Positions 5,903 through 44,994 of a stretch of DNA of 64,000 nucleotides are shown in pieces. Origin of the DNA: a bacterium (lineage in GTDB: Bacteria > RBG-13-61-14 > DATKZS01); assembly GCA_046484135.1 (NCBI GenBank), contig JAWOBU010000269.1, positions 401 through 64,400 of the forward strand, written 5' to 3'. The number at the start of each line of letters is the position of its first letter. The stretch's first letter is position 1. The notes beneath the pieces were generated by a model, which saw only the letters and a list, made by a program, of their open reading frames with translations, did no database searches and had not been told where the DNA came from. Position numbers and translations under genes: made by a program.

Positions 5903-5944
5903 AAATAGTTCAGTTTTTCCTCACGGCAGAAAGGAGAGTCGGCG

Positions 5945-6607: not shown

Positions 6608-6643
6608 TTCAATCACTCCGCCTTCGTAAAACAGCCGCTCGAC

Positions 6644-12205: not shown

Positions 12206-12255
12206 GGGAGTCCATTATTAAGGGAAGTGCGGGGGGATGCAACCGCGGAGGAGTT

Positions 12256-15360: not shown

Positions 15361-15387
15361 GCGCGGCCCTCCCTTATCAGCATGAGC

Positions 15388-18300: not shown

Positions 18301-19161
18301 CAGCAGGCCGGACAGGCCGGCGGGAAAGCCGCCGCCCATTCCCATGCCGCTCATTCCCATGCCTCCCATGGAGATGGAAGGAAGGGAAGGACCGCCGCTT
18401 ACAGCCTCCTTTTCGCCCTTCTCCGCCACCACCACGTTCCTTATGTCCTCGAGGCTTTGAAAGCGGTTGATGGTCCGGACCGCCAGCTTGGCCCCCCCGT
18501 GCTCCAGGGACCCGCTCGCCACGTTAAGGTTGGCCCGGGAGAGACGATCGGAGACGGTGGAGATGCTCAAACCGTAGCGGCTCAGCTTCTCTTCGTCTAT
18601 TTCCACTCTGACTTCGTCCTGGTAGCCGCCTTCGATCTTGACCGCGGCGATCCCGTCCAGGCGCTCGAGCTCGAGCTCCACGTTCATCTCCACCCACCGG
18701 CGAAGCTCGGAGAGGTCCTCCATCTCCCCGCTTACCGCCAGCGTCATGATCGGGTCCTGGTTCGGGTCGTAACGGAGCAGGATGGGCTTTTCCACCTCCT
18801 CCGGAAGAAGGTTGTTCAAAAGCTGGAGCTTCTCCCGGATGTCCATGGCGATCACGTCCACGTCCGAGCCCCAGATGAACTCGACGTAAACGTCGGACCA
18901 GCCGGGCCGGGAGACCGAGCTCACCTTGACCACGTTGTTGATGATGCCCACGTAGCTCTCGATGGGCTTGGTTACCCTCTCCTCGATCTCGCGGGGTGCC
19001 GCGTGAGGGTACTCGGTCCGGATGGTTATCTTGGGGTAGGTGATGTCAGGCAGAAGGTTTAAGGGTATCTTTTGCAGGCTCACGAACCCGAGAAGCAGTA
19101 TCCCCATTACCACCATGGAGACCGCCACCGGGCGGCGTATGGAAATACCGGACAGGTTCAA
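15388..19161 (-). CDS. RND efflux permease, enlarged (1257 aa) with Gly/Met-rich and inter-half insertions
   Basis: AcrB-like N-terminus (ISIRRPVAVSMVVMGILLLG). TTG start overlaps the MFP stop (TTGA). Confidence 0.8.
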   Translation of the reverse strand: MNLSGISIRRPVAVSMVVMGILLLGFVSLQKIPLNLLPDITYPKITIRTEYPHAAPREIEERVTKPIESYVGIINNVVKVSSVSRPGWSDVYVEFIWGSDVDVIAMDIREKLQLLNNLLPEEVEKPILLRYDPNQDPIMTLAVSGEMEDLSELRRWVEMNVELELERLDGIAAVKIEGGYQDEVRVEIDEEKLSRYGLSISTVSDRLSRANLNVASGSLEHGGAKLAVRTINRFQSLEDIRNVVVAEKGEKEAVSGGPSLPSISMGGMGMSGMGMGGGFPAGLSGLLGDMETPAAAAPAAEEDYKSLIRVKDVARVRKRHKERTEIARLNGNECIKVSVYKEGDANIVTVADEVEKALQGIRLGHRAEPRSIEWQKKLKDPRRHLKKFANGVSHVLLNYRPFKIEKEPVQLKHGINLEVISDQSVFIVQSVFSVAQTAIWGALLAVFIIYVFLRNISSTFIVGIAIPVSIIATFNLMYFGDISFNVMSLGGLALGVGLMVDNSIVVLENILRRRTFEPDLGQSAHSGTSEVASAITASTLTNIMVFFPILYLEGMFRQIFGDLAYTVAFSLVCSEAVALSVVPMLSVVMGNRVRLPPEMLRESGATGGSPTRGEENNAGQTGPAPEDKKTTAGSSVRFRNFRELRENALRKKGEKPGCLHLVMTIVSYLFFIIMIVPVAFVAKKLGRGASTGAGAIARYPLALFDAGFNRLKAWYPGALRKLLAHPFIVILVAVSLAGSAAYGLYRLGWELLPSVDQGEFRIRVELPTGTPIQETNRRIADLEDKIKTISHADKITSLFATVGTGSAEGEGAEEKAENIGEIHVNLVDRDMRDVVDEVIITQAMHGVERSVEVDARSSKPRILSYKTPVEIELEGNDLAGLSSAAETVMGRIRRIPGLLEIESSMAEKNPEVNITIDRDRAAALGLSVSEITEVVRRKVKGEASTTFELPEEQIDIVVALQERDRNSPERLRRITIPSASGNIRLGQVASIRRAQGPANITRSENSRVALIRANIHGRPLGDVVADIKRALSEEETVRSLPPDIRWDITGQNEEMERSKSSLYLALTLAIALVYIVLAAQFESLLHPFVIMFCVPFSLVGLAVILFLTGQTINIFSLIGMLMMIGIAVNDAIVLVTTINNRRDEGMERSDAIVEAGKSRLRPIAITTLTTALGMVPLALALGPGAELRTPMALSVIGGLTSSTIFTIFAIPCLYLVLDKIIPRSYQHRRKMVKEYETAEEESREEHLTPGSSGDSSS

Positions 19162-20285
19162 TTGTCGGGCTCTCCCGTGGTGCTTCCGGAACTTCCTGCA
19201 GGCTTTCGGGAGGGAAGCTCTTTAACTACGACCTTGCTCTTCGAGGTCAGCGCCGACTGGCCATCCACGATGACCTTATCATCCGGGGACAGGCCGGAAA
19301 CCACCTCGATGCCGTGCTCGTCAATAAGCCCCCTCTTGATTCGGACCATGTGCGCGCCGTCCCCTTTTACTACCCATACCCGATTGCCGTCCTCGGTCGC
19401 GGGCGCACGGCGGGGAATGACCATGGCCTCCGGATGGAGCTCGGTTACGATCTTCAAGCGGGCGAACATGCCCACCCGCAGACGCGGGTCCTGGTTGGGA
19501 AGGGTGACCTCGACCTGCACCGTGCCCGTCTGGGGGTCCACCCTCGGGGATATCCGGGAGACCTCGCCTTCAAAAGGAAAAGAGGAGGGATCGTCAGTAA
19601 GCGCGTCCACCCGGACCCGGACCTCCTGACCCCGCTCGAGCTCGGACACCTCCGACTCGGTTACGGTAATGGGGACCTTGAACTCGGAAAGATCGGCCAC
19701 CGTGAAAAGCTGCTCCATGGCTCCCGCCCGGTCATGAAGCTCGATCTTGCGGTTTACTACTATGCCCTTTATAGGGCTCTTGATCCGGGTCTCGGACAAG
19801 CGGAGCTCGGCCATCTCCAGGTTAGAGCGGGCGTCGTCATAGCTCCTTTTCATCTTTTCCATCTCCGACCGCGACTTCATCCCCTGCTCGTAGAGCTCCT
19901 TGGTGGAAAGATAGTCCGACCGGGCCACCCGATAGGCGCTCCGGGCCTGCTCCAGGCTGAGCCTCGCTTCATTGTCCTCAAGCCGCGCCAGTACCTGGCC
20001 CGCGCTTACCTTGTCCCCCTCTTCCGTCAGAAGCTCAACCACTTCGCCGGAAGTCTTGGCGGTGACCTCTACCTTGTCAACAGCCTCCAGGTTGCCGTGG
20101 ACCTCGATGACCTCCTCCATGGGACGGAGCTCCGGCTTGACCGCGTGAACGTAGATCGGGGCCTCTTCTATCTTCTCTTCCGACTCCGAGGGGTCCTTGC
20201 GCTGGCAGGAAAAAAGAACCAGAAAGACAGCAATAACGAAAACAACAAAGGTTAAGTACGAAAAACAAGAAAATCTTTTTATCAT
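19158..20285 (-). CDS. RND efflux periplasmic adaptor (membrane fusion protein, HlyD-like)
   Basis: 375 aa: N-terminal anchor, coiled-coil hairpin region, beta-barrel domain; directly upstream of the two RND permeases. Confidence 0.8.
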   Translation of the reverse strand: MIKRFSCFSYLTFVVFVIAVFLVLFSCQRKDPSESEEKIEEAPIYVHAVKPELRPMEEVIEVHGNLEAVDKVEVTAKTSGEVVELLTEEGDKVSAGQVLARLEDNEARLSLEQARSAYRVARSDYLSTKELYEQGMKSRSEMEKMKRSYDDARSNLEMAELRLSETRIKSPIKGIVVNRKIELHDRAGAMEQLFTVADLSEFKVPITVTESEVSELERGQEVRVRVDALTDDPSSFPFEGEVSRISPRVDPQTGTVQVEVTLPNQDPRLRVGMFARLKIVTELHPEAMVIPRRAPATEDGNRVWVVKGDGAHMVRIKRGLIDEHGIEVVSGLSPDDKVIVDGQSALTSKSKVVVKELPSRKPAGSSGSTTGEPDN

Positions 20286-30929: not shown

Positions 30930-31790
30930 GGAGTGCGGTGGCTTGCCGCCGCTTTGTGTCAGGGAGCTTGCTCCCGGTTGCCTTTCTTCCAGCTCCAACG
31001 GAGCGCCGTATATTAGCCAGGGGTTTTAACCCCTGGAAAAATGGGTATGGTTATGGCGCGTCCTGAAGGGACGCTGGAGTCCGTGGGATCGCGGGCGTCC
31101 CTGTCTGCGTGCGGACACGCACAGGCAGGCCGCCCGCTCTTGTTCTGCGGCCGAGACGGCCGCGTTCCCGGCCATTCTCCGCCGTCCCTTTGGGACTTGA
31201 GATGCTGGTCTTGATCGTGTCTGGAAGTCGCTCGCACAGGGGAGATGGGAGGAAACGCAACGGCGCTATGACGCAAGGGAAGAAGGAATATATTTTCAGC
31301 TAACGGAACAAAGACATATCGCGACTGAAGTCGCTCGCACTAAAGTCATGTTGAAAAAAAGAACCGTTGCGGCGTTGTGTCGTTGCGTTTAGAGCCAGGC
31401 TGGTGCTTGGCGGTCCCGGGGGAATTTTGCCAGGCTTCCGCCTGGCGGTCCCGGGGGGAGTTGCGTTTGGAGCCAGGCTGTGCTTATGGTGGGAGAGACC
31501 TCCAGGTCTCGATTATCGTGAGCAGGAGCTCACTCCCACCCGGATAGGCTATGCAGGCGGCGAGAAGCCGCAGGATGAAACCATCCTGTGCCAATGGCAC
31601 CCGGATAGACGAGCTATCCGGGCTACCGATCCATCCTGCGCTTTTTTCAACCGCCAGGCTGGAGCCTGGCGCTCCCAGGTTTTTTTGCCGGGCTCCCGCC
31701 CGGCGGTCCGGGGGGCAGGGCTCAGGCCCTTTCAACCAACTTCATCCTCACAACATCTTCCCTGAATATCCCTCCTGAAGCCTGCGCATG
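30930..31790. repeat. Non-coding mosaic of more than 20 short GC-rich hairpin repeats (REP-like cluster)
   Basis: Includes GCCRGGC-N4-GCCYGGC(GGTCCCGGGGG) units at 31393, 31428, 31653 and 31687; a CGCGACTGAAGTCGCTCGCAC unit at 31320; a 53-nt junction module at 31488-31540; a 28-nt direct repeat at 31381 and 31460. Confidence 0.65.
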
Positions 31791-31960
31791 ATGATAAGGC
31801 GGCTTAAAAGATCGCGTCTTTTCATGCTCGTAACATGACTTCAAAGTACTCGGAGCCGGTCGCGGAGAGCGCGTCCTGTTTATTCATTTCCAATGCCTCT
31901 TATAAAGGGACTTTGACACCTTCACCGCCTCCACCTAAAATGTCCTCGCAAGGAGGCTCC

Positions 31961-34900
31961 ATGAGCTTTTACGCTGATCTTCATATCCATTCCAAGTACT
32001 CGCGGGCCACGAGCCTGGAGTGCGACCTCGAGCACCTGGCGTTGTGGGCGGCCAGGAAAGGCATCGCGTTGGTGGGCACCGGCGACTTCACCCACCCGGC
32101 CTGGTTTGCCGAGATCAAGGACAAGCTGGTGGCCGCGGAGCCGGGTCTGTTCCGTCTTCGCGACGACATTAATCGCGAGGTCTTCAAAACGGCTGACACG
32201 GTGCCCTCCGTGCCGGTGCGGTTCATGCTCACGGTGGAGATATCCACCATCTACAAGCGCGGCGACTACACCCGCAAGGTCCATCACGTGATCGTGTGCC
32301 CGGACCTCGAGTCCGCGGGCCGCTTCCGGGAAAGCCTCGACCGGATCGGCAACATCAGCTCGGACGGCCGGCCCATCCTGGGCCTGGACTCGCGGGACCT
32401 CTTGGAGATCACCCTCGAGACGGGCGGCGACAACTACTTGATCCCTGCCCATATCTGGACGCCGTGGTTCTCCGTGCTCGGCTCCAAGTCGGGCTTCAAC
32501 TCCATCGAGGAGTGTTACGGCGACCTGTCTTCCCATATCTTCGCCCTGGAGACCGGGCTATCATCGGACCCGCCCATGAACTGGCGGCTCTCCGGCCTCG
32601 ACCGCTACACCCTGGTGTCCAACTCCGATGCCCACTCGCCGGCCAAGCTGGGCCGGGAGGCCTGCGTGTTCGAGTGCGACCCGGACTACTACTCGATTCG
32701 CAAGGCCATGGAGACGGGCCACGGCTACCAGGGCACCGTCGAGTTCTTCCCCGAAGAAGGCAAGTATCACATGGACGGGCACCGCAAATGCCGCGCCTGC
32801 CTGGAGCCGGGCGAGACCCGGTCGCGGGACGGGGTGTGCCCGGTGTGCGGCAAGCCGGTTACCGTGGGGGTCATGCACCGGGTGGAGGCGCTGGCTGACC
32901 GGGCCGACGGTGCCAGGCCGGAGAACCCAGACCCCTTCCGCAGCTTTATCCCCCTTGACGAGATCATCTCCGAGACCTTGCAGGTAGGTCCCAAGAGCAA
33001 GAAGGTCATGAGAGCCTACGAGTCCATAGTGGCGCGGCTGGGGCCGGAGCTTGATATCCTCGAACAGGTGCCGATAGAAGACATAAAAACCGGTGGCTCG
33101 ACCCTGATCGCGGAGGCTGTCTCAAGAATGCGAGAGGGCCGGGTCATAAAGCAGGCGGGCTACGACGGCGAGTATGGAGTGATAAGGCTTTTCCAGCCCG
33201 AAGAGCTCGAATGTCAAAGCAAGGGCGGGCTCCTGTTCGAGCTCCCGGAGGCGCAGAAAGAGCCCCGCAAAAAGCAGAAGGAGAAGAAAGCCGCAAAACC
33301 GGCAAGCAAAGGAGAAGCTGAAAAGCGAAAGACAGAAAAGGCGCAGCCCGAAACCGGGGTTGCTAGCGGAACAGCCTCGGAGCCCGGCACAGGCGTTCTT
33401 GCGGGACTGGACCCCGACCAGGCAGAGGCCGCCCGAATCATGGAAGGACCTCTGCTTATCCTGGCCGGACCCGGCACCGGCAAGACGCGTACGCTTACTC
33501 ATCGCATCGCTGCACTGGTCTCGGATAAAGGAGCGGACCCCGACTCCTGCCTGGCGCTCACCTTCTCGAGACGGGCGGCCTTCGAGATGAAGGAAAGGCT
33601 GGAGGTGCTTCTGCCTGAGACCTGTTCACAAGTGCCGGTCATGACCTTCCACGCCCTGGGTCTGTCCATCCTGCGCGAGCACGCGGACAAGCTGGACATT
33701 CCCCGCAGGTTCGCTGTCATGGGCGAACAGGAAAGGGTGGAGCTTTTGGCCGCGGCCGGCGGGTGGAGCGAGTCCAAGGCCCGGAAGCTGGTCTCGCGCA
33801 TCGCCCGGCAAAAGCGCACCGGCGAGGCGCCTGCGCCGGACAGCGAGTTCAGCTCTGCTTACGAGCTTTATGAAAAGGAGCGGAGCTCGCGCGGTCTGGT
33901 TGATTTCGAGGACCTGGTGGGACTCGCGGCGTGGCTTTTGGAGTCCGATCCCGGTGTTTGCGCCGACTACCGGGAGCGATTTCAGTGGGTGTCGGTGGAC
34001 GAGTACCAGGACGTGGACGAGCTCCAGTACCGGCTGGTGCGCGCGCTTTGTCCTTCGGACGGCAACATCTGCGCGATCGGCGACCCGGACCAGGCGGTGT
34101 ACGGTTTCCGGGGCTCGGACGTGCGTTTCTTTCTGCGCTTTCAGGAGGACTTCCCCGGCGCCCGCGTGGTCCGGCTCAGCCGGAACTACCGTTCGAGCCG
34201 GAACATCCTGGACGCGGGTCTGCAGGTGATCTCGGAGTCGGAGCTTTGCCTGGAGCGGTCGCTGGAGCCTCTGCTGGAGGACCCGTCTCGAGTGGCCATC
34301 CATGAAGGGGCCACCGAGCGCGCCGAGGCCGAGTTCGTGGTCCAGTCCCTGGAGCGGATGCTGGGCGGGCACAGCTTCTTTTCCATTGACAGCGGCCGGG
34401 CGGAGGAGGACGAAGGCAAGGATTATACCTTCTCCGACTTCGCTGTACTCTATCGCACTGATGCGCAGGCGGCTCCTTTGGTGGAGGCACTAGACCGGTC
34501 GGGCATCCCCTTCCAGAAGCGCTCGCATGAAAGGCTCATGGACAGGCCGGGCGTGCAAAAGCTCACCGAGCTTCTTCGGCAGGAGGAGCGCGGCAGACCG
34601 GTTTCCGAGCTGATCGGGGAGGCCGCGGAAAAAGCGAAAGAGCTAACAGAGAGCTTTTCTTCTGGAGAGCCGGAGGCGAAAGAAGAAGATTTTTCAGCGG
34701 AGCTGAACAAGGCGGTGGAGCTTTTGTCGCTCCTGGCGGACAAGTGGGACCGGGACCTGGCCGGGTTTTTGGCCGAGATATCGTTGGGCGCCGAGGTTGA
34801 TACGTGGGACCCGCGTGCGGAGCGGGTCTCGCTTTTGACGCTTCACGCGGCCAAGGGCCTCGAGTTCCGGGTGGTCTTTATCACGGGCTGCGAGGACGGG

Positions 34901-35158
34901 CTTCTGCCGCTCCGGTGGAAAAAGGAGGACGACTCGAACATCGAGGAGGAGCGTCGGCTCTTTTACGTGGGAATGACCCGGTCGAAGGAAAGGCTTTTTT
35001 TAAGCCGGGCCGTGAAAAGAAAGATCGGCTCCGCTTACCGCAAGCTCGGTCCTTCCCCGTTTTTGAAACAGATCGAAGAGCGGCTTCTGGAGAGGATCGA
35101 GTCAAAGCCGCTGCCGAAGAAGGAGAAGCCCGCCGCGGAGCAGTTGGACCTGTTTTGA
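31961..35158 (+). CDS. Fusion protein: EndoQ-like PHP nuclease plus Zn-ribbon (N-terminal) and UvrD/PcrA-type SF1 helicase (C-terminal)
   Basis: ATG at 31961 with AGGAGG 4 nt upstream. N-terminus: YADLHIHSKYSRA, LVGTGDFTHP, SNSDAHSP..LGRE, CPVCGK, GYDGEYGVIRLF. C-terminus: AGPGTGKT, VDEYQD, GDPDQAVYGFRG, NYRS, VGMTRSKERL. Confidence 0.8.
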   Translation: MSFYADLHIHSKYSRATSLECDLEHLALWAARKGIALVGTGDFTHPAWFAEIKDKLVAAEPGLFRLRDDINREVFKTADTVPSVPVRFMLTVEISTIYKRGDYTRKVHHVIVCPDLESAGRFRESLDRIGNISSDGRPILGLDSRDLLEITLETGGDNYLIPAHIWTPWFSVLGSKSGFNSIEECYGDLSSHIFALETGLSSDPPMNWRLSGLDRYTLVSNSDAHSPAKLGREACVFECDPDYYSIRKAMETGHGYQGTVEFFPEEGKYHMDGHRKCRACLEPGETRSRDGVCPVCGKPVTVGVMHRVEALADRADGARPENPDPFRSFIPLDEIISETLQVGPKSKKVMRAYESIVARLGPELDILEQVPIEDIKTGGSTLIAEAVSRMREGRVIKQAGYDGEYGVIRLFQPEELECQSKGGLLFELPEAQKEPRKKQKEKKAAKPASKGEAEKRKTEKAQPETGVASGTASEPGTGVLAGLDPDQAEAARIMEGPLLILAGPGTGKTRTLTHRIAALVSDKGADPDSCLALTFSRRAAFEMKERLEVLLPETCSQVPVMTFHALGLSILREHADKLDIPRRFAVMGEQERVELLAAAGGWSESKARKLVSRIARQKRTGEAPAPDSEFSSAYELYEKERSSRGLVDFEDLVGLAAWLLESDPGVCADYRERFQWVSVDEYQDVDELQYRLVRALCPSDGNICAIGDPDQAVYGFRGSDVRFFLRFQEDFPGARVVRLSRNYRSSRNILDAGLQVISESELCLERSLEPLLEDPSRVAIHEGATERAEAEFVVQSLERMLGGHSFFSIDSGRAEEDEGKDYTFSDFAVLYRTDAQAAPLVEALDRSGIPFQKRSHERLMDRPGVQKLTELLRQEERGRPVSELIGEAAEKAKELTESFSSGEPEAKEEDFSAELNKAVELLSLLADKWDRDLAGFLAEISLGAEVDTWDPRAERVSLLTLHAAKGLEFRVVFITGCEDGLLPLRWKKEDDSNIEEERRLFYVGMTRSKERLFLSRAVKRKIGSAYRKLGPSPFLKQIEERLLERIESKPLPKKEKPAAEQLDLF

Positions 35159-35171
35159 AACATTCCGCTAT

Positions 35172-35212
35172 ATAAAAAGCCGGGAGCGGAAGCGCACGGC
35201 CTCCGCTCCGGG
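35172..35212 (-). terminator. Terminator hairpin between convergent genes
   Basis: GGAGCGGA/TCCGCTCC stem (35183-35190 with 35202-35209), followed on the minus strand by CTTTTTATATA. Confidence 0.45.
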
Positions 35213-35240
35213 GAAGGTATACAAAGTAGAGCTCGAAAGC

Positions 35241-36029
35241 TCAGCGTTCCGGTCGGGCGCGGTGGTGCCGCATGCGGGAGCCGGGCCAGGCTTTAAGATA
35301 CGAGTGCTGGCCTGTGATGTCCTCAATGGTGTAGTCCACCACCTGGTCCCAGTTCTCCTCCCGGTCCTTCAGTATCCGCTTCATCTCTTTCAGCTTCTCC
35401 TCCAGCCGCTCGATCCTCTCCTTGTTGTTTTCATGCTGGATCTTGAGCTCTTTTTCCACCAGGGGCCGGAGCTCTTTCTCGATCTCCTTTTCCCGGCTCT
35501 CGCTGTCAGTAGTGCGGTACTCCTCGGCCAGCTCGCGGATTCTGGTAAGCCGCTCATAACGCTCGGGGTCGGTCTGTTTGATCCGCTCCAGGTGCCTGCC
35601 GCGGCCCATACCGGTTCCGGCCGCTCCCATGGAACGACCCGTGCGTGGGCGCTCTCCGGCAGCACGTCCTTTCCCGTCCCGGTCGCCGCGGCGCGCCATC
35701 CAATCATGGTGCCCGTCACCGCGCATCCGGCCATGGCCTTCCGGGTGAGCCATCCTTCCATGACCGCTGCCCACTCCAGCATCCATCAGACCGCTCCCGT
35801 CGCGACGATGGCTACGCACTCCCTTTCCAGAACCATTGCCTTCACGAGGGGAGTCCATGCCGGCAAAGAGCGGCAAGTCGGAGCTGAACTCCTCCTGAAA
35901 AGATTGGCCTTTCACGCCGGCCTTTGCTTTATCGAGCCTGTCCGCGCTTGTCTTGCCCAGATAGGCGAAGCCGCCTATCGTCAACGTCAGCACCGCCATG
36001 CCCACTATCATCCATGCCAGTTTTTTCAT
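35241..36029 (-). CDS. Membrane-anchored/periplasmic protein with a His/Met/Gly/Arg-rich region and a C-terminal coiled coil
   Basis: N-terminal TM/signal, GHGRMAHPEGHGRMRGDGHHDWM tract, heptad-like EKELKIQHENNKERIERLEEKLKEM; last gene of the ECF sigma operon. Confidence 0.55.
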   Translation of the reverse strand: MKKLAWMIVGMAVLTLTIGGFAYLGKTSADRLDKAKAGVKGQSFQEEFSSDLPLFAGMDSPREGNGSGKGVRSHRRDGSGLMDAGVGSGHGRMAHPEGHGRMRGDGHHDWMARRGDRDGKGRAAGERPRTGRSMGAAGTGMGRGRHLERIKQTDPERYERLTRIRELAEEYRTTDSESREKEIEKELRPLVEKELKIQHENNKERIERLEEKLKEMKRILKDREENWDQVVDYTIEDITGQHSYLKAWPGSRMRHHRARPER

Positions 36030-36079
36030 TGTTTTGCTCCTTTCATATTAAGTCGGTTTCATGTTTAAAAAAGCCCGCT

Positions 36080-36754
36080 TCAGTAGTCCTCCGGATATGA
36101 CTCGGCAAGGCCCATCTCATACTCGAGCTCGTTTACGGCCACCTCTATATCGTCAACCGCGGAGGCCTCCACAAACACGTAGTCCAGAACTTCATCCTGC
36201 GCATCCGCGGTTTCATTCTCCGACGCGGGGGTTTCCTGCTTTTCGGGCTGGGCTTCGGTGTAATGTTCCGCGGTGTCTCCGCCTAAAAGCAGGGCCTCTT
36301 CCCGGTACATCATCTGTTCAAGATCATCTATCTCCGTCTCCATTGCGACCAGGTAGGAAGGTACCTCGGATTTTTTCCGCGCTTGTCGGACATCAGAAGC
36401 GCGGTCCGTGAAGAAACTCTGATTTATAATGAGTGCAAGGGCCAGCACCAGCACGGCCGCCGCGGGGACCAGCACCCGCGGATTCGAGAAGACCCCGCCA
36501 AAAATGGATTTAATGGCCCTTCTTTGTTTACGTTTTGCCTTTTTCCGGACCGCGGCCACGGAAGTTTCCGAGGGGATGTCCCACGCCTCGCCGGTGGCGG
36601 CCCTTACTTCGCCTATCATGGAAAGGTAGGCCCCGCAGGCCGGGCAGTCCCGCACGTGCGCGGCGATGGCCGCGTCCGGGGACTCTCCATAAGCGAAAAG
36701 CAGAAGGTCGCCGGTGGAAACCTTGTCACAGCCGTGCTCGTAAAACGGTTTCAT
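36080..36754 (-). CDS. Anti-sigma factor (zf-HC2 type), single TM
   Basis: AAHVRDCPACGAYL (H-x3-C-x2-C), central TM segment; ATGA overlap with the sigma factor gene. Confidence 0.7.
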   Translation of the reverse strand: MKPFYEHGCDKVSTGDLLLFAYGESPDAAIAAHVRDCPACGAYLSMIGEVRAATGEAWDIPSETSVAAVRKKAKRKQRRAIKSIFGGVFSNPRVLVPAAAVLVLALALIINQSFFTDRASDVRQARKKSEVPSYLVAMETEIDDLEQMMYREEALLLGGDTAEHYTEAQPEKQETPASENETADAQDEVLDYVFVEASAVDDIEVAVNELEYEMGLAESYPEDY

Positions 36755-37302
36755 TTTTTCTCCTCCGCAAGCGGGCTCAGCTCTTGCCGGAGCTTCTTCA
36801 TGGCCAGGTGCATCCTGGAGAGGACGGTGTTCAAGTTGGTCTCCTTCATGCTTGCTATCTCTTTAAAAGAAAGTCCTCCATACTCGCGCAAAAGGAAGAC
36901 CTCTTTCTGCTCGGGGGAAAGACTTTCCAAGGCCCCCTCCAGGGCTTTTTTCATCTCGTTTTTCATGGTCCGGGTCTCGGGGTCCTCTCCTCCCGCGTAC
37001 TCAGGAGGATCGGCCTCCATGCTCACCGGGTCGCGCTTCCTCCGCCGGAGCCGGTCTTTTGCCAGGTTCGTAGCTATGGAAAAGACCCATGTCGAAAAGC
37101 TCCGGTCCGAATCAAAGCTGTCCCGGTGTTTGACCACCCTGATGAAGGTGTCCTGAAAGATGTCCTCGGCTTCCTGTCGGTCTCTAACCATTCTCATGAC
37201 CACCGTGAAAAGCGGCTTCCGGTAACGCTCCAAAAGCTCCTCGAACGATCCCCTGTCACCTGCGCGATATCTGTCAAACAGCTCCTCGTCGGAATTCTTC
37301 AT
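36751..37302 (-). CDS. ECF (group 4) RNA polymerase sigma factor
   Basis: 183 aa. Region 2 (FEELLERYRKPLF...DIFQDTFI) and region 4 (LSPEQKEVFLLREYGGLSFKEIA) patterns. Confidence 0.85.
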   Translation of the reverse strand: MKNSDEELFDRYRAGDRGSFEELLERYRKPLFTVVMRMVRDRQEAEDIFQDTFIRVVKHRDSFDSDRSFSTWVFSIATNLAKDRLRRRKRDPVSMEADPPEYAGGEDPETRTMKNEMKKALEGALESLSPEQKEVFLLREYGGLSFKEIASMKETNLNTVLSRMHLAMKKLRQELSPLAEEKK

Positions 37303-37789: not shown

Positions 37790-38265
37790 CTCTCTTTTCT
37801 CCTTTTCGAAACTTGACCGCTTACGGTCTTCCATCCTCGCTTCCGGGCCGCGATCCAGAAGCCTCCTTACCAAGCCCTGCTGACGAAGCCGTGCATCCTT
37901 TGCGATCAAGCGAACGAAAGGAGCCGATCGAGCACGAGCCGTCCGGGTAGATTACTTCGCGGCGAACTGCCCGGCTATTTAATTGTAGATTACTCCAGTA
38001 TTTTCAATCTGTCAATATGGAAATTGAAAAAAAACGAAATAAACTCTCCGCGCCGGCGAGGAAAAAGCCGGGCCTGTAGAACACTCTTTTTATGGACCGT
38101 TACCGAAAAACCTTCCCCCTCTTAAAACCATACCGGCCCTGATGCGTTTTACCCTGACAGGTTTTGGAAACAGCCGGTCGCTATATTTGGCCGGACCCGG
38201 TTGCCGGAGATAAAATTCTTCCGGTACCAAGAAAGATGAGGATTCAAACAAAGGAGAGAGTAAAG

Positions 38266-41200
38266 ATGAAATCTTACGCTGCCATCGCAACCCTGTTTCT
38301 GGCCATGTTCCTGACCCTGTTCAGCACGGGAGAAACCAGGGAGAACCCGGTACTGGACGTCTACGTTTTCTCGCCGGCGGAGCTCGATCCCGGCTCCCGC
38401 GCCTCCTTCCGGGTGGTGGTCAAGGAAGCGAAGAGCCTGACCGACTCCCGGCCGGTGGAAGGCGCCCGGGTGTGGGTAGGCTTAAAGGGCGAAGAAGACC
38501 ATTCCCTTTTGGTGGCCCGGACCAATGAGTCGGGCAGTATAACCCGGTCGGCGCGAATACCCGATGTGCCCGCGGGAGATGATTACGAGCTCGAGGTCCG
38601 GGTATCATCCCGGCTCGGAACAAAGAAGCTCAGCAAAGAAGTAAAGATAGCGCCGCGCTACCGGGTGCTCCTAACTACTGACAAGCCGCTCTACCAGCCG
38701 GGGCAGCTCATCCACATCAGGTCGGTGTCGCTGGGCATGGCCGAGCTTTCGCCCGTGGCAAATGAAAAGGTGGTCCTCGATGTCGAGGACCCGCAAGGCA
38801 ACAAGGTGTTCAAGAAGATCGGCGAGACCGACGAGTACGGCATCTTTGCCGCGGACTTTCAACTGGCGTCGGAAATCCGACTGGGCAGATACCTGGTCCG
38901 GGCCAGCGTGGGTGACCGGAGCGCGGAAAAGACAATCAAAGTTGACCGCTACGTGCTTCCCAAGTACAAGGTGGTCCTGGACACCGACCGGAGCTACTAC
39001 AAGCCGGGCGAGGAGGTGCACGGCACGGTGAGCGCCAACTACTTCTTCGGAAAGCCGGTTGCGGGCGGCAAGGTAGAGGTAACCGCAGAGGCCTTTGACG
39101 TGGAGTTCCACAAGGTGGCTGAGGTTACCGGCCGCACCGACGACGACGGCAACTTCGAGTTCGAGCTCGAGCTTCCCGACTACTTTGCCGGACAGCCCTT
39201 GGAGCAGGGGGACGCTTTTGTAAAGATCACCGCCAAGGTAACGGACCAGGCCGAGCACGAGGAAGAGGCCACGGTACAGCGCAAGGTGTCGGCCACCGAC
39301 CTCAACCTTGCGCTGGTGCCGGAGGCCGGCCGGATCATTCCCGGGGTCGAGAACACCATCTACGCGGTGGCGTCCACCCCGGACGACAAGCCGGCCCGCG
39401 CCCGCGTAACCATCAAGGCGGGAGACAAGACCATGACCGCCCGCACCGGCCGGGCGGGTATCGCGTCCGTGTCTTTCGTGCCCGAGGCCGACGACTTCCT
39501 GCGTCGCGGCAACAAACTTCATCTTTCCATCCGGGCGCACGCAGAGGACAGGCGCGGCAACGAGGTCGAGATAAAAAAGGACTTATCCGCAAAGGACACT
39601 AATGACAATGTCATGTTGCGCACCGACCGGGCGCTCTACACTGCGGGCGAGGACATGGAGCTCGAGGTCCTGTCCACCCGTGGCACCGGCACGGTTTACA
39701 TAGACCTCATCAAGAACCGGCAGACGGTGCTCACGCGGTCGGTGGAGATCAAGGACGGCAGGGGCCACACCCGGGTCTCCATTGGACCGGACGTTTTCGG
39801 GACCGTCGAGGTCCACGCTTACTCGATCCTGGGCGACGGCGAGATCATGCGGGACAGCCGGGTGGTCTACATCGAGCCGCAAGACGACCTCGATATTGAC
39901 GTGTCCCTGGACAAGGACACCTACCGGCCGGGGGAAGAGGCCCGGCTTGTATTCAAGGTTACGGATGATAAAGGCCGGGGAAAGGCCGCGGCCCTGGGCC
40001 TGTCCATAGTTGACGAAGCGGTGTTCGCCATCCAGGAGATGCAGCCCGGGCTTCTCAAGGTGTACTTCACCCTGGAGAAGGAGCTGGCCAAGCCGCGCTA
40101 CGAGGTCCACTTCTCGCCCGGCGGCTACACCATGGAAAAGGCGATACAGGAGCAAGAAGCCAAGGCGTCCCGCGACCGGGCCATGAAGGTCATGCTGGCG
40201 GGCGTGAAAAACCCCACCGAGCCGGAGTGGGCCAACAACCCGGCAAAGGAAAGGCTGGAAAAGGAGAAGAAACAGCTTCAAAGCTACGCCCGCAAGTTCG
40301 CTGGCTGGGCGAGCTCGCACCGGTTCCTGGAGAAAAACCGGCAGGGACAGTGGGTGTACCGGAGCGATGTAACCGAGCGGATGATAAAGGACGGCGCCAT
40401 CAGCGAGAAAAAGGCCCGCGACTCTTTCGGCGGGCTTTATAAGCCGGAGATGCTGGAGAGGGTGGATTCGATTTTCAAGCTCCCGAACTTTGCCCGCAAC
40501 ATGGCTTCTTACCGGCTGGCGGTGATCTACTCGGCGCTGAACATAATGTTCGAGGAGGAGGAAGAATCGTGGCTGGGCGGCATGTTTGACGGAGGCGAGG
40601 AGCCCGAGATAACGCCTGAGCTCCTGGATAAGATGGTAAAGAAAGAGTACCTGACAGAAGGCCACATCAAGGACCCGTGGGGGAAGCGCTACATAGTGCG
40701 CTATGACGAGGACAGCAAGCGAAACCCCTACAGCAACCAATACAAGCATTACGTGATAAAGTCGGCGGGACTGGACGGAGAGCCGGACACCAGGGACGAC
40801 ATCTCCGACCCGTGGGGAGCGGGACCCCGGTTTTATCAATATGTATCGAGAATCCGCAGAGAACAGGACAAGGGGCTTTTGGGCAGGGTCCTGGACCGGG
40901 TCCGGCCGTGGTTCTCGGTGGAGGAAAAAGCCCTGCGCCGGGCCCGGCCCGTAGCAGAAGCTCCCGAGGCCCAGGGGGGCGCTATGCTGGGCGACGCTGC
41001 GGAAATGGAAAGCACGGGCAAAGACACGAGCGGCAGCGGCTCGGGCAACCAGGGCGAACAAATCCGGGTCCGGGACTACTTCCCGGAGACCCTGCTGTGG
41101 GAGCCTTCGCTCATCACCGACCGGAACGGCCGCGCCGAGCTTACTTTGCCGCTTGCCGACTCGATCACCACCTGGCGGCTCACTGCGCTGGGTCATTCCG

Positions 41201-43176
41201 CGGACGGTATGTTGGGTTCGGTAACCGACGGCATCAAGGTTTTCCAGGACTTTTTCGTTGACATAGACTTCCCGGTACAGCTCACTCAGGGCGACGAGGT
41301 CGAGGTCCCGGTAGCGGTTTACAACTACCTTCCGGGCTCGCAAAAGATCAAGCTCGAGGTCCGCGAGCACCAGGGATTCGAGCTTCTTTCCGGGGCGGTA
41401 AAAAGACTCAGGCTGAAGACGAACCAGGTGGACGTGGTGTACTTCCGGGTGAAGGCGGAGGAGCTCGGCAAGCAGAGCCTGACGGTCTATGCCATCGGCT
41501 CGAAGATGAGCGACGCTGTGAAGCGGTCGGTGGAGGTTATCCCGGACGGCCTGCGCATGGAGGACGTAAAGAACGGGCAGATCACGGGAGACCTTGCCGA
41601 GACCATCAAGATACCGGATTACGCCATCGAGGACGCCAGCCGGATCATGGTGAAAGTTTACCCGGGCGTGTTCGCGCAGGTGCTGGAGGGGCTGGACAGC
41701 ATCTTCCGCATGCCCAACGGCTGCTTCGAGCAGACCACCTCGACCACCTACCCCAACGTCATGGTCCTGGCCTACATGAAAAAGACCGGCACCATCAGGC
41801 CGGAAATCCAGATGAAGGCGGAGGAGTACATCAACCTGGGCTACCAGCGACTCCTTTCCTTCGAAGTCCCCGGCGGAGGGTTCGAATGGTTCGGAAAAGA
41901 GCCAGCCCACAAGGTACTCACCGCGTACGGGCTCATGGAATTCCATGACATGAGCAAGGTCTATCCGGTAGACCCCGCGGTGATCGAAAGAACTCAGAGG
42001 TGGCTCGCTGACAAGCAGAAGGACGACGGCTCCTGGGAGCCTGCTAAGCACTGGATGGAGACCCTGTCCGGCAACGCCTTCTCGAGGTCGGTCGAGCTCA
42101 ACACCGCCTATATAACATGGTCGCTGGCCGAGACCGGCTATGAAGGACAAGAGGTGCAGAAAGGGATCAATTACTTGAAGGAGAACATGAAAGAGATTGA
42201 TGACGCTTATACCCTGGCGCTGGCCCTGAACGCGCTGGTGGCCCACGACCGGAATGATCCCGCTGCCCGCGACATCATGGACAAGCTGAACCGGCTCAAG
42301 AAAAAGGACGACAAGCGCGGGACCATCCACTGGGAGCCCGCGGGCGAGACCGCGGTGAACGGCAAGGGCAAGACCGCCAAGATCGAGACCACGGCGCTGA
42401 TCCTCTATGCCATGATCAAGGCAAGGGCTTACCCCGCCACCGTGAACCAGGGGCTTGGCTGGCTTTCGCAGCAGAAAGACGCGTTCGGGACCTTCCAGTC
42501 CACCCAGGCCACTATTCTTACATTCAAGGCCATGCTGGCCGCGGAAGAAGGGACCGGCTCGGACGTAAAAGGGGACATCACCATCAAGGCGGGAGACCGC
42601 GAGCACACCGTGTCCATCACCCCCGAGACCTCGGACGTGATGAGGATGATAGACTTCAAAGGCCAGACCGTAAAAGGCAAAAACAGAATCGAGATCGAAG
42701 CTCCCGACAACATGGGCCTCATGTACCAGGTGGTGGGCATACACTACGCGCCCTGGAAAAAGGTTGCTGAGATAAAGGGAGAGCCGCTCCTGTCCCTGGA
42801 TGTGGACTACGACCGCACGAAGCTCGAGACCAATGACGTGCTCACCGCGAATGTAAAAGCCCAGTACAACGGCGAGAAGTCAACCGAGATGGTGATCCTG
42901 GACCTCGGCATTCCGCCGGGATTCGAGCTCCTGCCCGAGAACCTGCAAAAACTGAGAGATAAGAACGTGATCGAGAAGTACAACGCCACCGGCAGGCAGA
43001 TCACGGTTTACGTGCGCAGGATGAAAAAAGGCGAGCCCCTCGAGTTCTCCTATGAGCTCAAGGCCAAGTTCCCGGTCAAGGCCAAGGCACCCAAAAGCGC
43101 GGCCTACGAGTACTACAACCCGGAGAACCGGGTGGAGACCACCCCGGTGGAGATCGAGGTAAAGAAGGCAAATTAA
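38266..43176 (+). CDS. Alpha-2-macroglobulin family protein with a thioester motif (1636 aa)
   Basis: Signal peptide after the ATG at 38266 (AAGGAGAG RBS); repeated MG-type domains; GCFEQTTSTTYPN thioester (CxEQ) motif; VRDYFPETLLWEP. Confidence 0.85.
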   Translation: MKSYAAIATLFLAMFLTLFSTGETRENPVLDVYVFSPAELDPGSRASFRVVVKEAKSLTDSRPVEGARVWVGLKGEEDHSLLVARTNESGSITRSARIPDVPAGDDYELEVRVSSRLGTKKLSKEVKIAPRYRVLLTTDKPLYQPGQLIHIRSVSLGMAELSPVANEKVVLDVEDPQGNKVFKKIGETDEYGIFAADFQLASEIRLGRYLVRASVGDRSAEKTIKVDRYVLPKYKVVLDTDRSYYKPGEEVHGTVSANYFFGKPVAGGKVEVTAEAFDVEFHKVAEVTGRTDDDGNFEFELELPDYFAGQPLEQGDAFVKITAKVTDQAEHEEEATVQRKVSATDLNLALVPEAGRIIPGVENTIYAVASTPDDKPARARVTIKAGDKTMTARTGRAGIASVSFVPEADDFLRRGNKLHLSIRAHAEDRRGNEVEIKKDLSAKDTNDNVMLRTDRALYTAGEDMELEVLSTRGTGTVYIDLIKNRQTVLTRSVEIKDGRGHTRVSIGPDVFGTVEVHAYSILGDGEIMRDSRVVYIEPQDDLDIDVSLDKDTYRPGEEARLVFKVTDDKGRGKAAALGLSIVDEAVFAIQEMQPGLLKVYFTLEKELAKPRYEVHFSPGGYTMEKAIQEQEAKASRDRAMKVMLAGVKNPTEPEWANNPAKERLEKEKKQLQSYARKFAGWASSHRFLEKNRQGQWVYRSDVTERMIKDGAISEKKARDSFGGLYKPEMLERVDSIFKLPNFARNMASYRLAVIYSALNIMFEEEEESWLGGMFDGGEEPEITPELLDKMVKKEYLTEGHIKDPWGKRYIVRYDEDSKRNPYSNQYKHYVIKSAGLDGEPDTRDDISDPWGAGPRFYQYVSRIRREQDKGLLGRVLDRVRPWFSVEEKALRRARPVAEAPEAQGGAMLGDAAEMESTGKDTSGSGSGNQGEQIRVRDYFPETLLWEPSLITDRNGRAELTLPLADSITTWRLTALGHSADGMLGSVTDGIKVFQDFFVDIDFPVQLTQGDEVEVPVAVYNYLPGSQKIKLEVREHQGFELLSGAVKRLRLKTNQVDVVYFRVKAEELGKQSLTVYAIGSKMSDAVKRSVEVIPDGLRMEDVKNGQITGDLAETIKIPDYAIEDASRIMVKVYPGVFAQVLEGLDSIFRMPNGCFEQTTSTTYPNVMVLAYMKKTGTIRPEIQMKAEEYINLGYQRLLSFEVPGGGFEWFGKEPAHKVLTAYGLMEFHDMSKVYPVDPAVIERTQRWLADKQKDDGSWEPAKHWMETLSGNAFSRSVELNTAYITWSLAETGYEGQEVQKGINYLKENMKEIDDAYTLALALNALVAHDRNDPAARDIMDKLNRLKKKDDKRGTIHWEPAGETAVNGKGKTAKIETTALILYAMIKARAYPATVNQGLGWLSQQKDAFGTFQSTQATILTFKAMLAAEEGTGSDVKGDITIKAGDREHTVSITPETSDVMRMIDFKGQTVKGKNRIEIEAPDNMGLMYQVVGIHYAPWKKVAEIKGEPLLSLDVDYDRTKLETNDVLTANVKAQYNGEKSTEMVILDLGIPPGFELLPENLQKLRDKNVIEKYNATGRQITVYVRRMKKGEPLEFSYELKAKFPVKAKAPKSAAYEYYNPENRVETTPVEIEVKKAN

Positions 43177-43284: not shown

Positions 43285-43788
43285 TCACTTGCTGCTTTTA
43301 ACCTTGATGCTCTTCTGCTTTCCGGTCTCGGTCTTGGGGAGGGTTACGTTCAGGACCCCGTCCTTGAACTCGGCTTCCACCTTGTCCTCGTCAATCTCAG
43401 AGGGCACCGGTATGCGGCGGTAGAAGGAACCGTAGCCTCTTTCCACCACGTGGTAGCCCTCTTCGTCGCTCTCTCTTTCGTGCTTCTTCTCGCCCTTCAG
43501 TACCAGGTTGTTGCCGTCCAGGCTCAACTCCACGTCGTCTTCCTTCATGCCGGGAAGCTCCGCGGTGACCTCGATCTTGTCCTTCTTCTCCTTCACGTTG
43601 ACGCGCGGCTCGAACTCGGTCAAGATTTCCCTTCCGCTAAAGGGAGCGAGTCCGGCGTCGCCAAAGAAGCTGTCGAACATCCGGTTCATCTCGCGCTGAA
43701 AGGCGGTGAAGGGGTCCGCGTATTCCCTCGGACTCAGACCTTCCTCTGCTTCACGTCTCCTCCACGGTACCAAGCTCCGTATGGTCAT
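43285..43788 (-). CDS. Small heat-shock protein (Hsp20/alpha-crystallin)
   Basis: Alpha-crystallin domain ...VTAELPGMKEDDVELSLDGNNLVLKGEK...FYRRIPVP...A.FKDGVLNVTLPK; AGGAGGG RBS. Confidence 0.85.
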   Translation of the reverse strand: MTIRSLVPWRRREAEEGLSPREYADPFTAFQREMNRMFDSFFGDAGLAPFSGREILTEFEPRVNVKEKKDKIEVTAELPGMKEDDVELSLDGNNLVLKGEKKHERESDEEGYHVVERGYGSFYRRIPVPSEIDEDKVEAEFKDGVLNVTLPKTETGKQKSIKVKSSK

Positions 43789-43834
43789 CTCTCATCCCTC
43801 CTTTCGAGATTAGAGTTATATAGTTTGCGGCCTC

Positions 43835-44185
43835 TTACGCCGCGTTGACCTTGATCTGCCTGGGCTTCTCTTTCTCCGACTTGGGCAGGGTCAAGGTCAG
43901 GATGCCGTCTTTGAGCTCCGCGTTAATGTTGTCCCGGTCAATCTCGCCGGCGATCCGGAGAGTAGTCTCGAAATCGCCTATGTTGTACTCCCGGTAAAGC
44001 CTGGGAAGGTCTTTTGGTTCCTCGTTCACGTTTCCTTTTATGGTGAGCAGATCACCTTCGAGGTGAACTTCTATATTCTCAGAGGCGGTCCCCGGCAGAT
44101 CGCCTTTGACCAGGTAGGAGTCGCTTTTTTCCACTATATCCAGCGTCGGCGAGAACACCGGTTTTCTCGTTTCTCTCTCCGCCAT
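43835..44185 (-). CDS. Small heat-shock protein (Hsp20), short form
   Basis: YLVKGDLPGTASENIEVHLEGDLLTIKG...AELKDGILTLTLPK; AGGAGGG RBS. Confidence 0.8.
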   Translation of the reverse strand: MAERETRKPVFSPTLDIVEKSDSYLVKGDLPGTASENIEVHLEGDLLTIKGNVNEEPKDLPRLYREYNIGDFETTLRIAGEIDRDNINAELKDGILTLTLPKSEKEKPRQIKVNAA

Positions 44186-44232
44186 GCTCTGTCCCTCCTT
44201 TCGTGTGTTGGAAGTTTTTACTTTTCAGCTTT

Positions 44233-44649
44233 TCAAGCCACCTTTACGGGTATCTTGCGCGGCTTCTCCTCTTCCGCCCGGGGAAGATGGATGTAAAGCA
44301 CGCCGTTCTCATAGTTGGCCTCCACTTTGTCCGATTCCACTCCATAAGGCAGTGTCACCGAGCGGGAGAAGTCGCCGGATGCACGTTCGTTCAAAACCAC
44401 TCTTTCGTCTTCTCCCGGCTCTATCCCCTGGCGGGTGCCGCTAAGGGTCAGGTTCCTTCCCTGGATGGATATGTCCAGGTTCTCCATGTCCAGCCCCGGG
44501 ATCTCGCTCGTTATAACAAGCTTTTCATCATTGCCGTACATGTTGATGGCCGGGAACGTGCCGTAGCCGACTCCCCTGCCCCGATAAGGCGTCCTGCCTC
44601 TTGCCGCGAGGGGGGACCCCCACATATCGCTTGCTAGTCCGAAAGGCAT
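44233..44649 (-). CDS. Small heat-shock protein (Hsp20)
   Basis: VITSEIPGLDMENLDISIQGRNLTLSG...FSRSVTLPYGV...A.YENGVLYIHLPR. ATG at 44649, 6 nt after AAGGAGGTG (the track GTG lies inside the RBS). Confidence 0.8.
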   Translation of the reverse strand: MPFGLASDMWGSPLAARGRTPYRGRGVGYGTFPAINMYGNDEKLVITSEIPGLDMENLDISIQGRNLTLSGTRQGIEPGEDERVVLNERASGDFSRSVTLPYGVESDKVEANYENGVLYIHLPRAEEEKPRKIPVKVA

Positions 44650-44994
44650 AACGGTCACCTCCTTTGCTTTTTGTGCTATAACTTACTCTTTTGACTCACT
44701 TTTTCACTTCAGCCTATAAATAAATTTAAACACAACTTTCATTCTGTCAAGGCCGAAAATAAACACCCCCCTAAAATTTTTCGGACTTGAACTTGCTTCG
44801 CCATCTACAGCAACGACCCGGCGATTGCGGCACCTGGATAGGGCCTGCAAAACGGATGCAAAACTTGACTGGAGAGACGGGAAGCGCGTACCATTGTTTT
44901 GTTTTCTTTTTCCATGGCTTCTGGTTTAGGTTTATGAGTTCATGCCCTGACATTAAATGACAGGAGGCCGGCTCGTTGGCGGAGGAAGGACCTT

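Follow-up and report, generated by a model that had tools for sequence, protein, structure and literature searches.

Endonuclease Q (EndoQ) incises DNA directly 5′ of deoxyuridine (dU), deoxyinosine (dI), deoxyxanthosine (dX) or abasic (AP) sites, as demonstrated for the Pfu, Thermococcus kodakarensis (Tko) and Bacillus enzymes. Archaeal EndoQ is stimulated by PCNA via a C-terminal PCNA-interacting peptide (PIP) box (PMC4858679), and in the pathway scheme of its discoverers the damaged stretch is removed ‘by helicase activity’, a post-incision step that EndoQ papers call unresolved for the archaeal pathway. Reviews describe EndoQ as archaeal and as occurring in ‘a few bacteria’. Shiraishi et al. 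2016 (PMC4858679, Suppl. Fig. S1) tabulated more than 30 long ‘EndoQ homologs’ (945-1244 aa) from bacteria together with their C-terminal beta-clamp motifs; the sources include Geobacter metallireducens (WP_004512662, 1075 aa), Sorangium cellulosum, Saccharopolyspora spinosa, Opitutaceae, Zymomonas mobilis and Desulfovibrio spp. The consensus given there is QL[S/D]LF, and the interaction with the clamp was left to be investigated. The gene considered here encodes one such long protein and lies near the middle of a 64,000-nucleotide bacterial stretch, ‘the window’ (contig JAWOBU010000269.1, positions 401 to 64,400). In its product an EndoQ module is joined to a UvrD/PcrA-type superfamily 1 (SF1) helicase, and the fusion is probably a clamp-tethered nick-and-unwind repair enzyme for dU, dI and AP sites.

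The window protein is a member of the long bacterial EndoQ group just mentioned. It is of the same length class and has the same C-terminal QL[x]LF, nothing material differs, and Sorangium, Saccharopolyspora and Opitutaceae are common to the published list and to the species-genome scan dealt with below. EndoQ proteins fall in three families ‘based on the domain organization’, according to Miyazono et al. 2018 (PMC5961232), and in the accessible parts of that paper and of Shiraishi 2016 (PMC4858679) a helicase domain is not named, nor is any fused member tested. An original prediction, made from the window's letters alone, took the fusion to be uncharacterized experimentally, and no biochemical study of a fused member was found in the literature searched. 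It also allowed that the architecture might already be described and functionally assigned: the class of protein was indeed tabulated in 2016, whereas no functional assignment was found in that literature. Shiraishi et al. 2017 (Biosci Biotechnol Biochem) reportedly defined the long homologues as one bacterial EndoQ family by domain organization, and is said to show the extra domain.

In comparison with stand-alone EndoQs (PfuEndoQ and T. kodakarensis EndoQ, 5zb8 and 7k30; Bacillus pumilus and B. subtilis EndoQ) the fusion has the common layout of PHP, Zn and helical domains, followed by about 650 extra residues which constitute a linker and a complete UvrD/PcrA helicase. The metal ligands of PfuEndoQ are kept, as is the lesion pocket at all but one position. 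However, the predicted zinc site is of HCCC rather than C4 type, and the clamp motif is at the helicase end, with a second, xLF, motif where the stand-alone proteins stop. A clamp-docking C-terminal peptide is common to both, being a PIP box for PCNA in archaeal EndoQ and QLxLF, predicted to be for the beta clamp, in the fusion. Set against UvrD, PcrA and Rep (2is1, 1pjr, 1uaa), the helicase half has all the motifs and the 1A/1B/2A/2B layout at 28-31% identity, but it scores below the equivalog cut-offs, its 2B subdomain is shorter and lacks RGIG, and it carries an N-terminal nuclease module. Physical coupling of a UvrD-like SF1 motor to a nuclease is also a feature of AddA, RecB and AdnB and of Gabija GajA-GajB. 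The nuclease is a C-terminal PD-(D/E)XK domain in the first three, a separate OLD/TOPRIM protein in GajA, and N-terminal PHP/EndoQ in the fusion; all these systems, moreover, act together with partner subunits, at DNA ends or within defence islands, whereas the fusion gene has no conserved partner.

The EndoQ assignment draws on three kinds of comparison. With phmmer, query residues 5-415 match positions 5-385 of the 400-residue PfuEndoQ chain (5zb8) at E=3e-45; the NCBIfam profile TIGR00375 is matched over positions 2-374 of 374 (E=6e-43); and Foldseek superimposes the module, as modelled by AlphaFold2, on PfuEndoQ with a template-modelling (TM) score of 0.85-0.87 at 32-33% identity. The local Pfam copy lacks a model covering the EndoQ half; PF27218 is among the precomputed Pfam hits of every homologue. 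The motifs are DLHIHS (6-11), VHH (107-109), PAHIWTPW (162-169), ETGLSS (197-202), SNSDAHSP (220-227), CPVCG (293-297) and GYDGEYGVIR (400-409).

Conservation was judged on two alignments, one of 12 sequences and the other of 53 homologues at 56-78% identity to the query. Pfu residues H8, H10, E76, H84, R114, H139, D193 and H195 correspond to H8, H10, E93, H108, R137, H164, D223 and H225 of the window protein, and all of these, i.e. the seven metal ligands together with R137, are invariant in the larger set. The base pocket and wedge residues of PfuEndoQ, T142, W144, E167, G169, L170, S171 and N191, have as counterparts T167, W169, E197, G199, L200, S201 and N221; the first six are invariant in the 53 homologues, and for N221 the same holds in the alignment of 12, with conservation of at least 90% in the larger one. 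Every PfuEndoQ residue whose mutation abolishes or reduces activity (H8, H10, E76, H84, R114, H139, W144, G169, L170, D193 and H195; PMC5961232) has a matching counterpart in the alignment. To judge from these alignments, the catalytic site of the module is intact, and its specificity for incision 5′ of the lesion would be that found biochemically for PfuEndoQ and Bacillus EndoQ.

The zinc site departs from the archaeal one in a single ligand. Its predicted ligands, H274, C277, C293 and C296, are family-invariant in both alignments; three of the four Cys of PfuEndoQ (C249, C252, C268, C271) are kept as C277, C293 and C296, and His274 aligns with the first, Cys249. The resulting HCCC arrangement appears chemically plausible. 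C280, in the stretch C277-R-A-C280, is outside the conserved columns and is substituted in several homologues, CRAC being peculiar to the window sequence.

The helicase half matches PcrA (1pjr, E=7e-85 over aa 479-1049), UvrD (2is1, E=3e-71) and Rep; Pfam gives UvrD-helicase (PF00580, E=9e-65, profile positions 1-271 of 271) and UvrD_C (PF13361, E=2e-41), and the Foldseek TM score with UvrD/PcrA is ~0.7. The motifs are AGPGTGKT (502-509), DEYQD (680-684), GDPDQAVYGFRG (707-718), NYRS (742-745), TLHAAKGLEF (960-969) and VGMTRSKERL (1003-1012), and K508, T509, D680, E681, Q711, R744 and R1007 are invariant among the 53 homologues. Equivalog cut-offs are not reached, the scores being 395.9 against 911 bits for PcrA, 309 against 1144 for UvrD and 319 against 951 for Rep. 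By these scores the helicase is UvrD-like and orthologous to none of the three. The match stops at aa 1049, and with only a 16-aa tail remaining there is no room for the C-terminal extension with which UvrD and PcrA bind RNA polymerase. The spacing from motif IV to motif V has a family median of 205 aa, and in the AlphaFold2 model the three helices of the shortened 2B subdomain span residues 881-899, 905-929 and 933-941.

Between the modules is a disordered linker of ~55 aa, which in homologues ranges from 61 to 179 aa and is unconserved in sequence. The AlphaFold2 model, built on the 53 homologues, has a mean predicted local distance difference test (pLDDT) value of 77.8 and consists of two folded modules, the disordered linker and a disordered tail (aa 1050-1065), the latter two fitting expectation for short linear motifs. 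As a source of inter-module docking the model was set aside, its predicted TM score (pTM) of 0.51 and the disordered linker leaving no usable geometry. The two-module architecture of the original prediction, an EndoQ-type PHP nuclease fused to a complete UvrD/PcrA SF1 helicase through a Lys/Glu-rich linker, is thus borne out; every motif that it quoted for either half is present in the translated reading frame, and the PHP His/Asp ligands, loss of which it had raised as something that a careful alignment might reveal, are all there and invariant. Its zinc site, given as CxxC...CPxCG, holds for the CPxCG part, while for the first CxxC the true pattern is HxxC, i.e. HxxC...CxxC.

What the original prediction overlooked is the last five residues, and this affects its description of the enzyme as ‘self-contained’. 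QLDLF at the extreme C-terminus matches the beta-clamp consensus exactly. A motif of the form Q[LM]xL[FL] occurs within the last 10 aa in 108 of 120 close homologues, the preceding tail being variable in sequence and basic (over the 25 aa that precede the final pentapeptide, Lys plus Arg average ~27% in these 120). A looser form, QxxL[FLI...], is present in 189 of 207 full-length members, representatives at 50% identity among them, and the C-terminal motif recurs in the intact fusions at the species-genome loci examined. Clamp binding by the fusion protein, for which this motif argues, would imply that the enzyme operates while bound to the replication sliding clamp.

There is probably a second, or relic, clamp-binding motif. 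The internal GGLLF at the start of the linker belongs to a general form xSLF or xLLF, with L425 and F426 conserved in at least 90% of the 53 sequences. In 156 of the 207 full-length members xLF ends exactly 17 aa after GYDGxYGxIR, and in 179 (86%) it is at most 30 aa after it, versus 7% in shuffled linkers. The position is that at which stand-alone bacterial EndoQs carry a C-terminal QxxLF, and several stand-alone proteins from the species-genome scan have xLF at or near their C-terminus (one from Streptosporangium, L073, ends APTLF; another, L043, has GLLFDLP). The internal xLF may accordingly be EndoQ's ancestral clamp motif, which persisted through the fusion, and with two motifs the protein may be bivalent for the dimeric beta clamp. 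In one Gastranaerophilales locus (L026) a dnaN-like open reading frame (ORF), identified by eye from its N-terminus, is located at 5554-6675 on the minus strand, convergent with and ~1 kb downstream of the EndoQ-helicase gene. It represents a cluster of four ORFs from four loci; a nearby dnaN is weakly suggestive given the clamp motif, and it is confined to that four-locus cluster.

A sequence of events can be proposed. QLDLF, and probably the internal GGLLF too, would anchor the protein on a DNA-bound beta clamp, which could be one remaining in the wake of the replication fork or one loaded at a 3′-OH end. The EndoQ module would flip the deaminated base (dU, dI or dX) or abasic site into the conserved pocket, and the two-Zn PHP centre would cut directly 5′ of the lesion, yielding a 3′-OH and a lesion-carrying 5′-phosphate. 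Kept within reach by the flexible 55-aa linker, the helicase module would load at the nick and, by 3′-5′ translocation on the intact strand, peel off the lesion-bearing 5′ strand. Both the 3′-5′ polarity and starting from nicks are expected by homology; the coupling of nicking to unwinding, and the identity of the displaced strand, are what the combination of modules would suggest. A clamp-bound polymerase would then extend the 3′-OH, and a 5′ nuclease or flap nuclease, followed by ligase, would complete repair. The clamp would provide localization, probably stimulation, much as PCNA stimulates archaeal EndoQ, and a platform for the resynthesizing polymerase.

Nick-and-unwind, as first predicted, is still the most economical mechanism, both catalytic sites being intact; ‘self-contained’ and ‘anti-foreign-DNA’ are the parts that have not lasted, and ‘clamp-tethered genome-maintenance enzyme’ should replace them. 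A more elaborate version is possible and put forward tentatively. In it the protein is a single-polypeptide initiator of ‘alternative excision repair’ on the replication clamp, GGLLF and QLDLF filling both pockets of one beta-clamp dimer while EndoQ scans new DNA for dU, dI and AP sites and, once it has cut, the 2B-trimmed helicase strips the lesion strand to allow its resynthesis by a polymerase. Such a pathway, in the hundreds of bacterial species with the fusion, would be glycosylase-independent, replication-coupled and parallel to base excision repair by uracil-DNA glycosylase and AP endonuclease.

A number of points weigh against a clamp-tethered nick-and-unwind enzyme. No experiment on a fused member was found in the literature searched. 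Since a 3′-5′ helicase on the nicked strand would leave the lesion behind, productive polarity requires loading on the intact strand, and this is an assumption. The 2B subdomain is ~75 aa shorter than in PcrA, whose residues 401-478 are unmatched in the alignment, and [KR]G[IVL]G, the form of the RGIG-type motif that grips duplex in UvrD and PcrA, is absent in 119 of 120 homologues; given the trimmed 2B, behaviour at nicks may differ from that of UvrD. The low pTM goes with a lack of confident inter-module geometry to back a direct hand-off. The internal xLF is without the leading Gln of the clamp consensus and might rather serve docking of another kind, for example within the molecule. At one zinc-ligand position His takes the place of Cys. 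The TIGR00375 score, 147.6 bits, is below the curated trusted cut-off of 326.6 bits, indicating a diverged EndoQ subfamily rather than an equivalog, and the substrate range of such a subfamily could differ. The one pocket-lining change is of Pfu Leu168 to Thr198, Leu168 being a main-chain contact position in PfuEndoQ (PMC5961232).

An alternative, rated unlikely, also starts from the clamp motifs, which place the enzyme at replication or repair intermediates: a clamp-associated helicase-nuclease for fork, nascent-strand or end processing, with the PHP/EndoQ part as a general phosphoesterase acting on 3′ blocks, ribonucleotides or flaps, comparable to the PHP exonucleases of Pol X and Pol III alpha or to the nuclease domains of AddA and RecB. 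PHP domains elsewhere are 3′-5′ exonucleases or phosphoesterases, and EndoQ has itself been compared with BadPE (PMC5961232); the low TIGR00375 score would fit too, and AddA, RecB and AdnB are among the more distant helicase matches. The AddA score is 131 against a cut-off of 708 bits, the region after the helicase is the 16-aa tail, and no AddB or RecC/RecD partner gene is adjacent to the fusion in the window. What counts against the alternative is the rigid pocket (H164, T167, E197, G199, L200, S201, N221, D223) and wedge Trp169, which are conserved and for which a non-specific nuclease has no need. The Bacillus EndoQ homologues, moreover, have EndoQ-type activity (PMC5961232).

The distribution of the fusion is pertinent to the remaining alternatives. 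A full-length search gave at least 8000 scored matches; nearly all of the best 120 align along the entire query (100% coverage), with identities of 54-78%. These 120 have names such as ‘UvrD-helicase domain-containing protein’ and share the same precomputed Pfam set. The nearest relative of the window protein is 77% identical and the others are at or below 63%. When just the EndoQ domain is used as a profile, 4370 clusters at 50% identity are matched (1398 with E<=1e-30), and in most of the best 150 clusters the protein is of 1000-1200 aa with EndoQ nearly always N-terminal. The architecture's spread, which had been proposed as a check, proved wide: at least 600 GTDB species genomes from about ten phyla have matches. 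Eighty loci were retained for context analysis, from Planctomycetota, Acidobacteriota, Myxococcota, Binatia, Actinomycetota (cultured Micromonospora, Saccharopolyspora and Streptosporangium among them), Melainabacteria, Gemmatimonadota, Verrucomicrobiota, Alphaproteobacteria and Chloroflexi.

Of the 80 loci, ~63 have an intact fusion, and complete chromosomes of cultured isolates are represented among them. EndoQ is always N-terminal in these fusions, which appear to be selected as a unit. Stand-alone EndoQ-only genes were found at ~8 loci. Those at L051 and L073 (both Streptosporangium), L042, L043, L053 and L054 encode 430-454 aa with no downstream helicase, their EndoQ domains being 58-65% identical to the fused one; such copies fit a history of recurrent fusion or fission in the family. 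At L024, a Gastranaerophilales metagenome-assembled genome (MAG), the gene is split (10001-12929), a 422-aa EndoQ ORF overlapping a 562-aa stop-to-stop helicase frame that ends QLTLF, which is either natural fission or a sequencing frameshift. An artefact of annotation or assembly, or a gene in decay, whether read-through of two genes or a dead relic domain, has a negligible probability as an explanation of the fusion and is effectively excluded: L024 and the frameshifted copies at L005, L038 and L075 are the few loci in its favour, against an uninterrupted reading frame in the window, at least 8000 full-length homologues, the ~63 intact loci and invariant catalytic residues in both halves.

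Neighbouring genes were compared by all-against-all clustering of 4152 flank ORFs from the 80 loci at two stringencies, and at neither is any neighbour gene conserved across taxa. A ligase, polymerase or exonuclease was considered as operon partner and none is conserved. The recurring clusters are the fusion itself, antisense shadow ORFs, synteny restricted to Micromonospora, and generic families in at most 8 loci. In Micromonospora the flanking genes keep their synteny, as would be expected around a core gene. The window neighbours encode acyl-CoA dehydrogenase, thiolase, a short-chain dehydrogenase/reductase, an extracytoplasmic function (ECF) sigma factor, an RNA recognition motif protein, alpha-2-macroglobulin and three Hsp20 proteins. 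The G+C content at third codon positions (GC3) is 0.79 for the fusion gene, like that of adjacent genes (window genes were called with a GC3-based script). From the at least 600 species, the Micromonospora synteny, the lack of a partner, the metabolic and stress neighbours and the native GC3, the gene looks chromosomal and housekeeping in its distribution.

This bears directly on the anti-foreign-DNA role that was originally offered beside repair, in which EndoQ would nick invading DNA that contains uracil or is non-canonical in another way, and unwinding by the helicase would expose that DNA to degradation (cf. Gabija GajA/GajB and Nhi). That role is now judged highly improbable. PADLOC GajB models match the helicase half with E down to 1e-78, as they would any UvrD-like protein, while PADLOC yields nothing for the nuclease half or for the architecture as a whole, and there is no GajA-like gene among the window neighbours. 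The defence-island association for which the neighbourhood was to be inspected is not found in the window, and no partner recurs across the 80 loci; synteny within a genus is conserved, unlike the patchy occurrence of island genes. By tblastn, an EndoQ-domain relative is present in none of 50,697 phage records and in one of 72,556 plasmids, a Brevibacillus replicon of 733 kb whose EndoQ is of the stand-alone type. The conserved clamp-binding motif, too, points to host replication and repair.

If a clamp-tethered nick-and-unwind repair enzyme is what the fusion encodes, many bacteria have a glycosylase-independent means of removing uracil, hypoxanthine and abasic sites, with Actinomycetota, Myxococcota, Planctomycetota, Acidobacteriota and gut-associated Melainabacteria among the carriers. 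The view of EndoQ as confined to ‘a few bacteria’ is contradicted by the number of EndoQ-domain clusters and of species genomes with matches. As a ‘Rosetta stone’, the fusion suggests the kind of helicase that acts after EndoQ incision. Apparently new in relation to the accessible portions of the EndoQ texts are the internal xLF, the His zinc ligand, the trimmed 2B without RGIG and the breadth of the family. The window copy itself is ordinary, one more family member in a housekeeping context, and as such no surprise to an EndoQ specialist, while being a good target for biochemistry.

Coordinates of the gene and its parts are in the table. The reading frame is uninterrupted on the plus strand from stop to stop (31835-35158), and from the ATG at 31961 it encodes 1065 aa. 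That this ATG is the correct start, as the original prediction had proposed from its AGGAGG in preference to the longer ORF, is indicated by comparison: all homologues open with MxFYADLHIHS, the deposited NCBI MAG protein ‘UvrD-helicase domain-containing protein’ is identical over the same 1065 aa, and a promoter-like site sits within the longer ORF. Translation from 31835 was rejected, its 42-aa extension having no counterpart in any homologue and containing that site. The promoter candidate is the sole one of its kind in 31500-35400, with 0.4 expected in shuffles.

Features of the EndoQ-helicase gene in the window (aa, residues of the 1065-aa protein)
Feature	Window position	Strand	Basis
Sigma-70-like promoter candidate, TTGACA-17 nt-TAAAAT, just upstream of the fusion gene	31913-31941	+	11/12 consensus match
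Shine-Dalgarno sequence AGGAGG, 4 nt 5′ of ATG	31951-31956	+	Direct sequence reading
Coding sequence of EndoQ-UvrD/PcrA fusion, stop codon included	31961-35158	+	ORF translation
EndoQ module, aa 1-415: PHP catalytic, Zn-binding and C-terminal helical domains	31961-33205	+	phmmer, TIGR00375, Foldseek
Predicted Zn-binding site, H274-x2-C277 ... C293-P-x-C296 (HCCC)	32780-32848	+	Invariant in both alignments
Disordered, charged, low-complexity linker, aa 421-476	33221-33388	+	AlphaFold2 pLDDT 29-36
Internal GGLLF (xLF) motif, aa 422-426, EndoQ end/linker start	33224-33238	+	Conserved, fixed offset
UvrD/PcrA-type SF1A helicase, aa 479-1049; motifs Q, I, Ia, II, III, IV, V, VI	33395-35107	+	PcrA, UvrD and Pfam matches
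Shortened 2B subdomain, aa ~873-955, three helices, without RGIG-type sequence	34577-34825	+	Alignment and AlphaFold2 model
Basic, disordered C-terminal tail, aa 1050-1060	35108-35140	+	pLDDT <50
C-terminal QLDLF, beta-sliding-clamp-binding consensus	35141-35155	+	Exact match to QL[S/D]LF

The gene upstream of the fusion ends at 30717, leaving an unusually long non-coding gap of ~1.2 kb. Acido-Lenti-1 is a small RNA family known from Acidobacteria and Lentisphaerae. A match to it (Rfam RF01687; 41.2 bits against a gathering score of 37 bits, E=6e-6) falls in this gap at 30991-31036 on the minus strand and gives a hint of the phylum from which the window comes. Also there, upstream of the promoter-like site, are four copies of a 34-nt GC-rich unit (GCCAGGCT...GGCGGTCCCGGGGG) at 31394-31720, arranged as two tandem pairs ~225 nt apart. 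Their arms at 31429-31449 and 31650-31670 are 90% complementary, one pair being partly so against the other, and the units look like intergenic repeats of the repetitive extragenic palindromic (REP) or miniature inverted-repeat transposable element (MITE) type. Downstream, between the fusion stop codon and the end, at 35241, of a convergent gene, is a GC-rich hairpin of 11 bp followed by a T-run (35183-35209); it was scored on the minus strand, yet is positioned to terminate both convergent transcripts.

The convergent gene is the last of a likely three-gene unit on the minus strand (35241-37302). The ECF sigma factor gene (36751-37302) is overlapped by a 224-aa ORF with no Pfam match (36080-36754), a possible anti-sigma factor, and the third member (35241-36029), an ORF of 262 aa, is rich in Gly, Arg and His, is charged in its C-terminal half and again has no Pfam match. 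Further on, the gene for a bacterial alpha-2-macroglobulin of 1670 aa (38164-43176, plus strand) adjoins three successive Hsp20/alpha-crystallin genes (43285-44658, minus strand) whose products are of 167, 116 and 141 aa. Towards the other end of the window are two minus-strand tRNA genes, at 4341-4415 and 4480-4552 (Rfam RF00005; 70 and 72 bits), and an efflux operon of the resistance-nodulation-division type (12256-20285, minus strand) with a membrane-fusion protein gene at 19158-20285 and AcrB-family ORFs at 15388-19161 and 12256-15360. For the latter ORF the best Pfam stretch is the N-terminal half of ACR_tran only (positions 2-546 of 1021).

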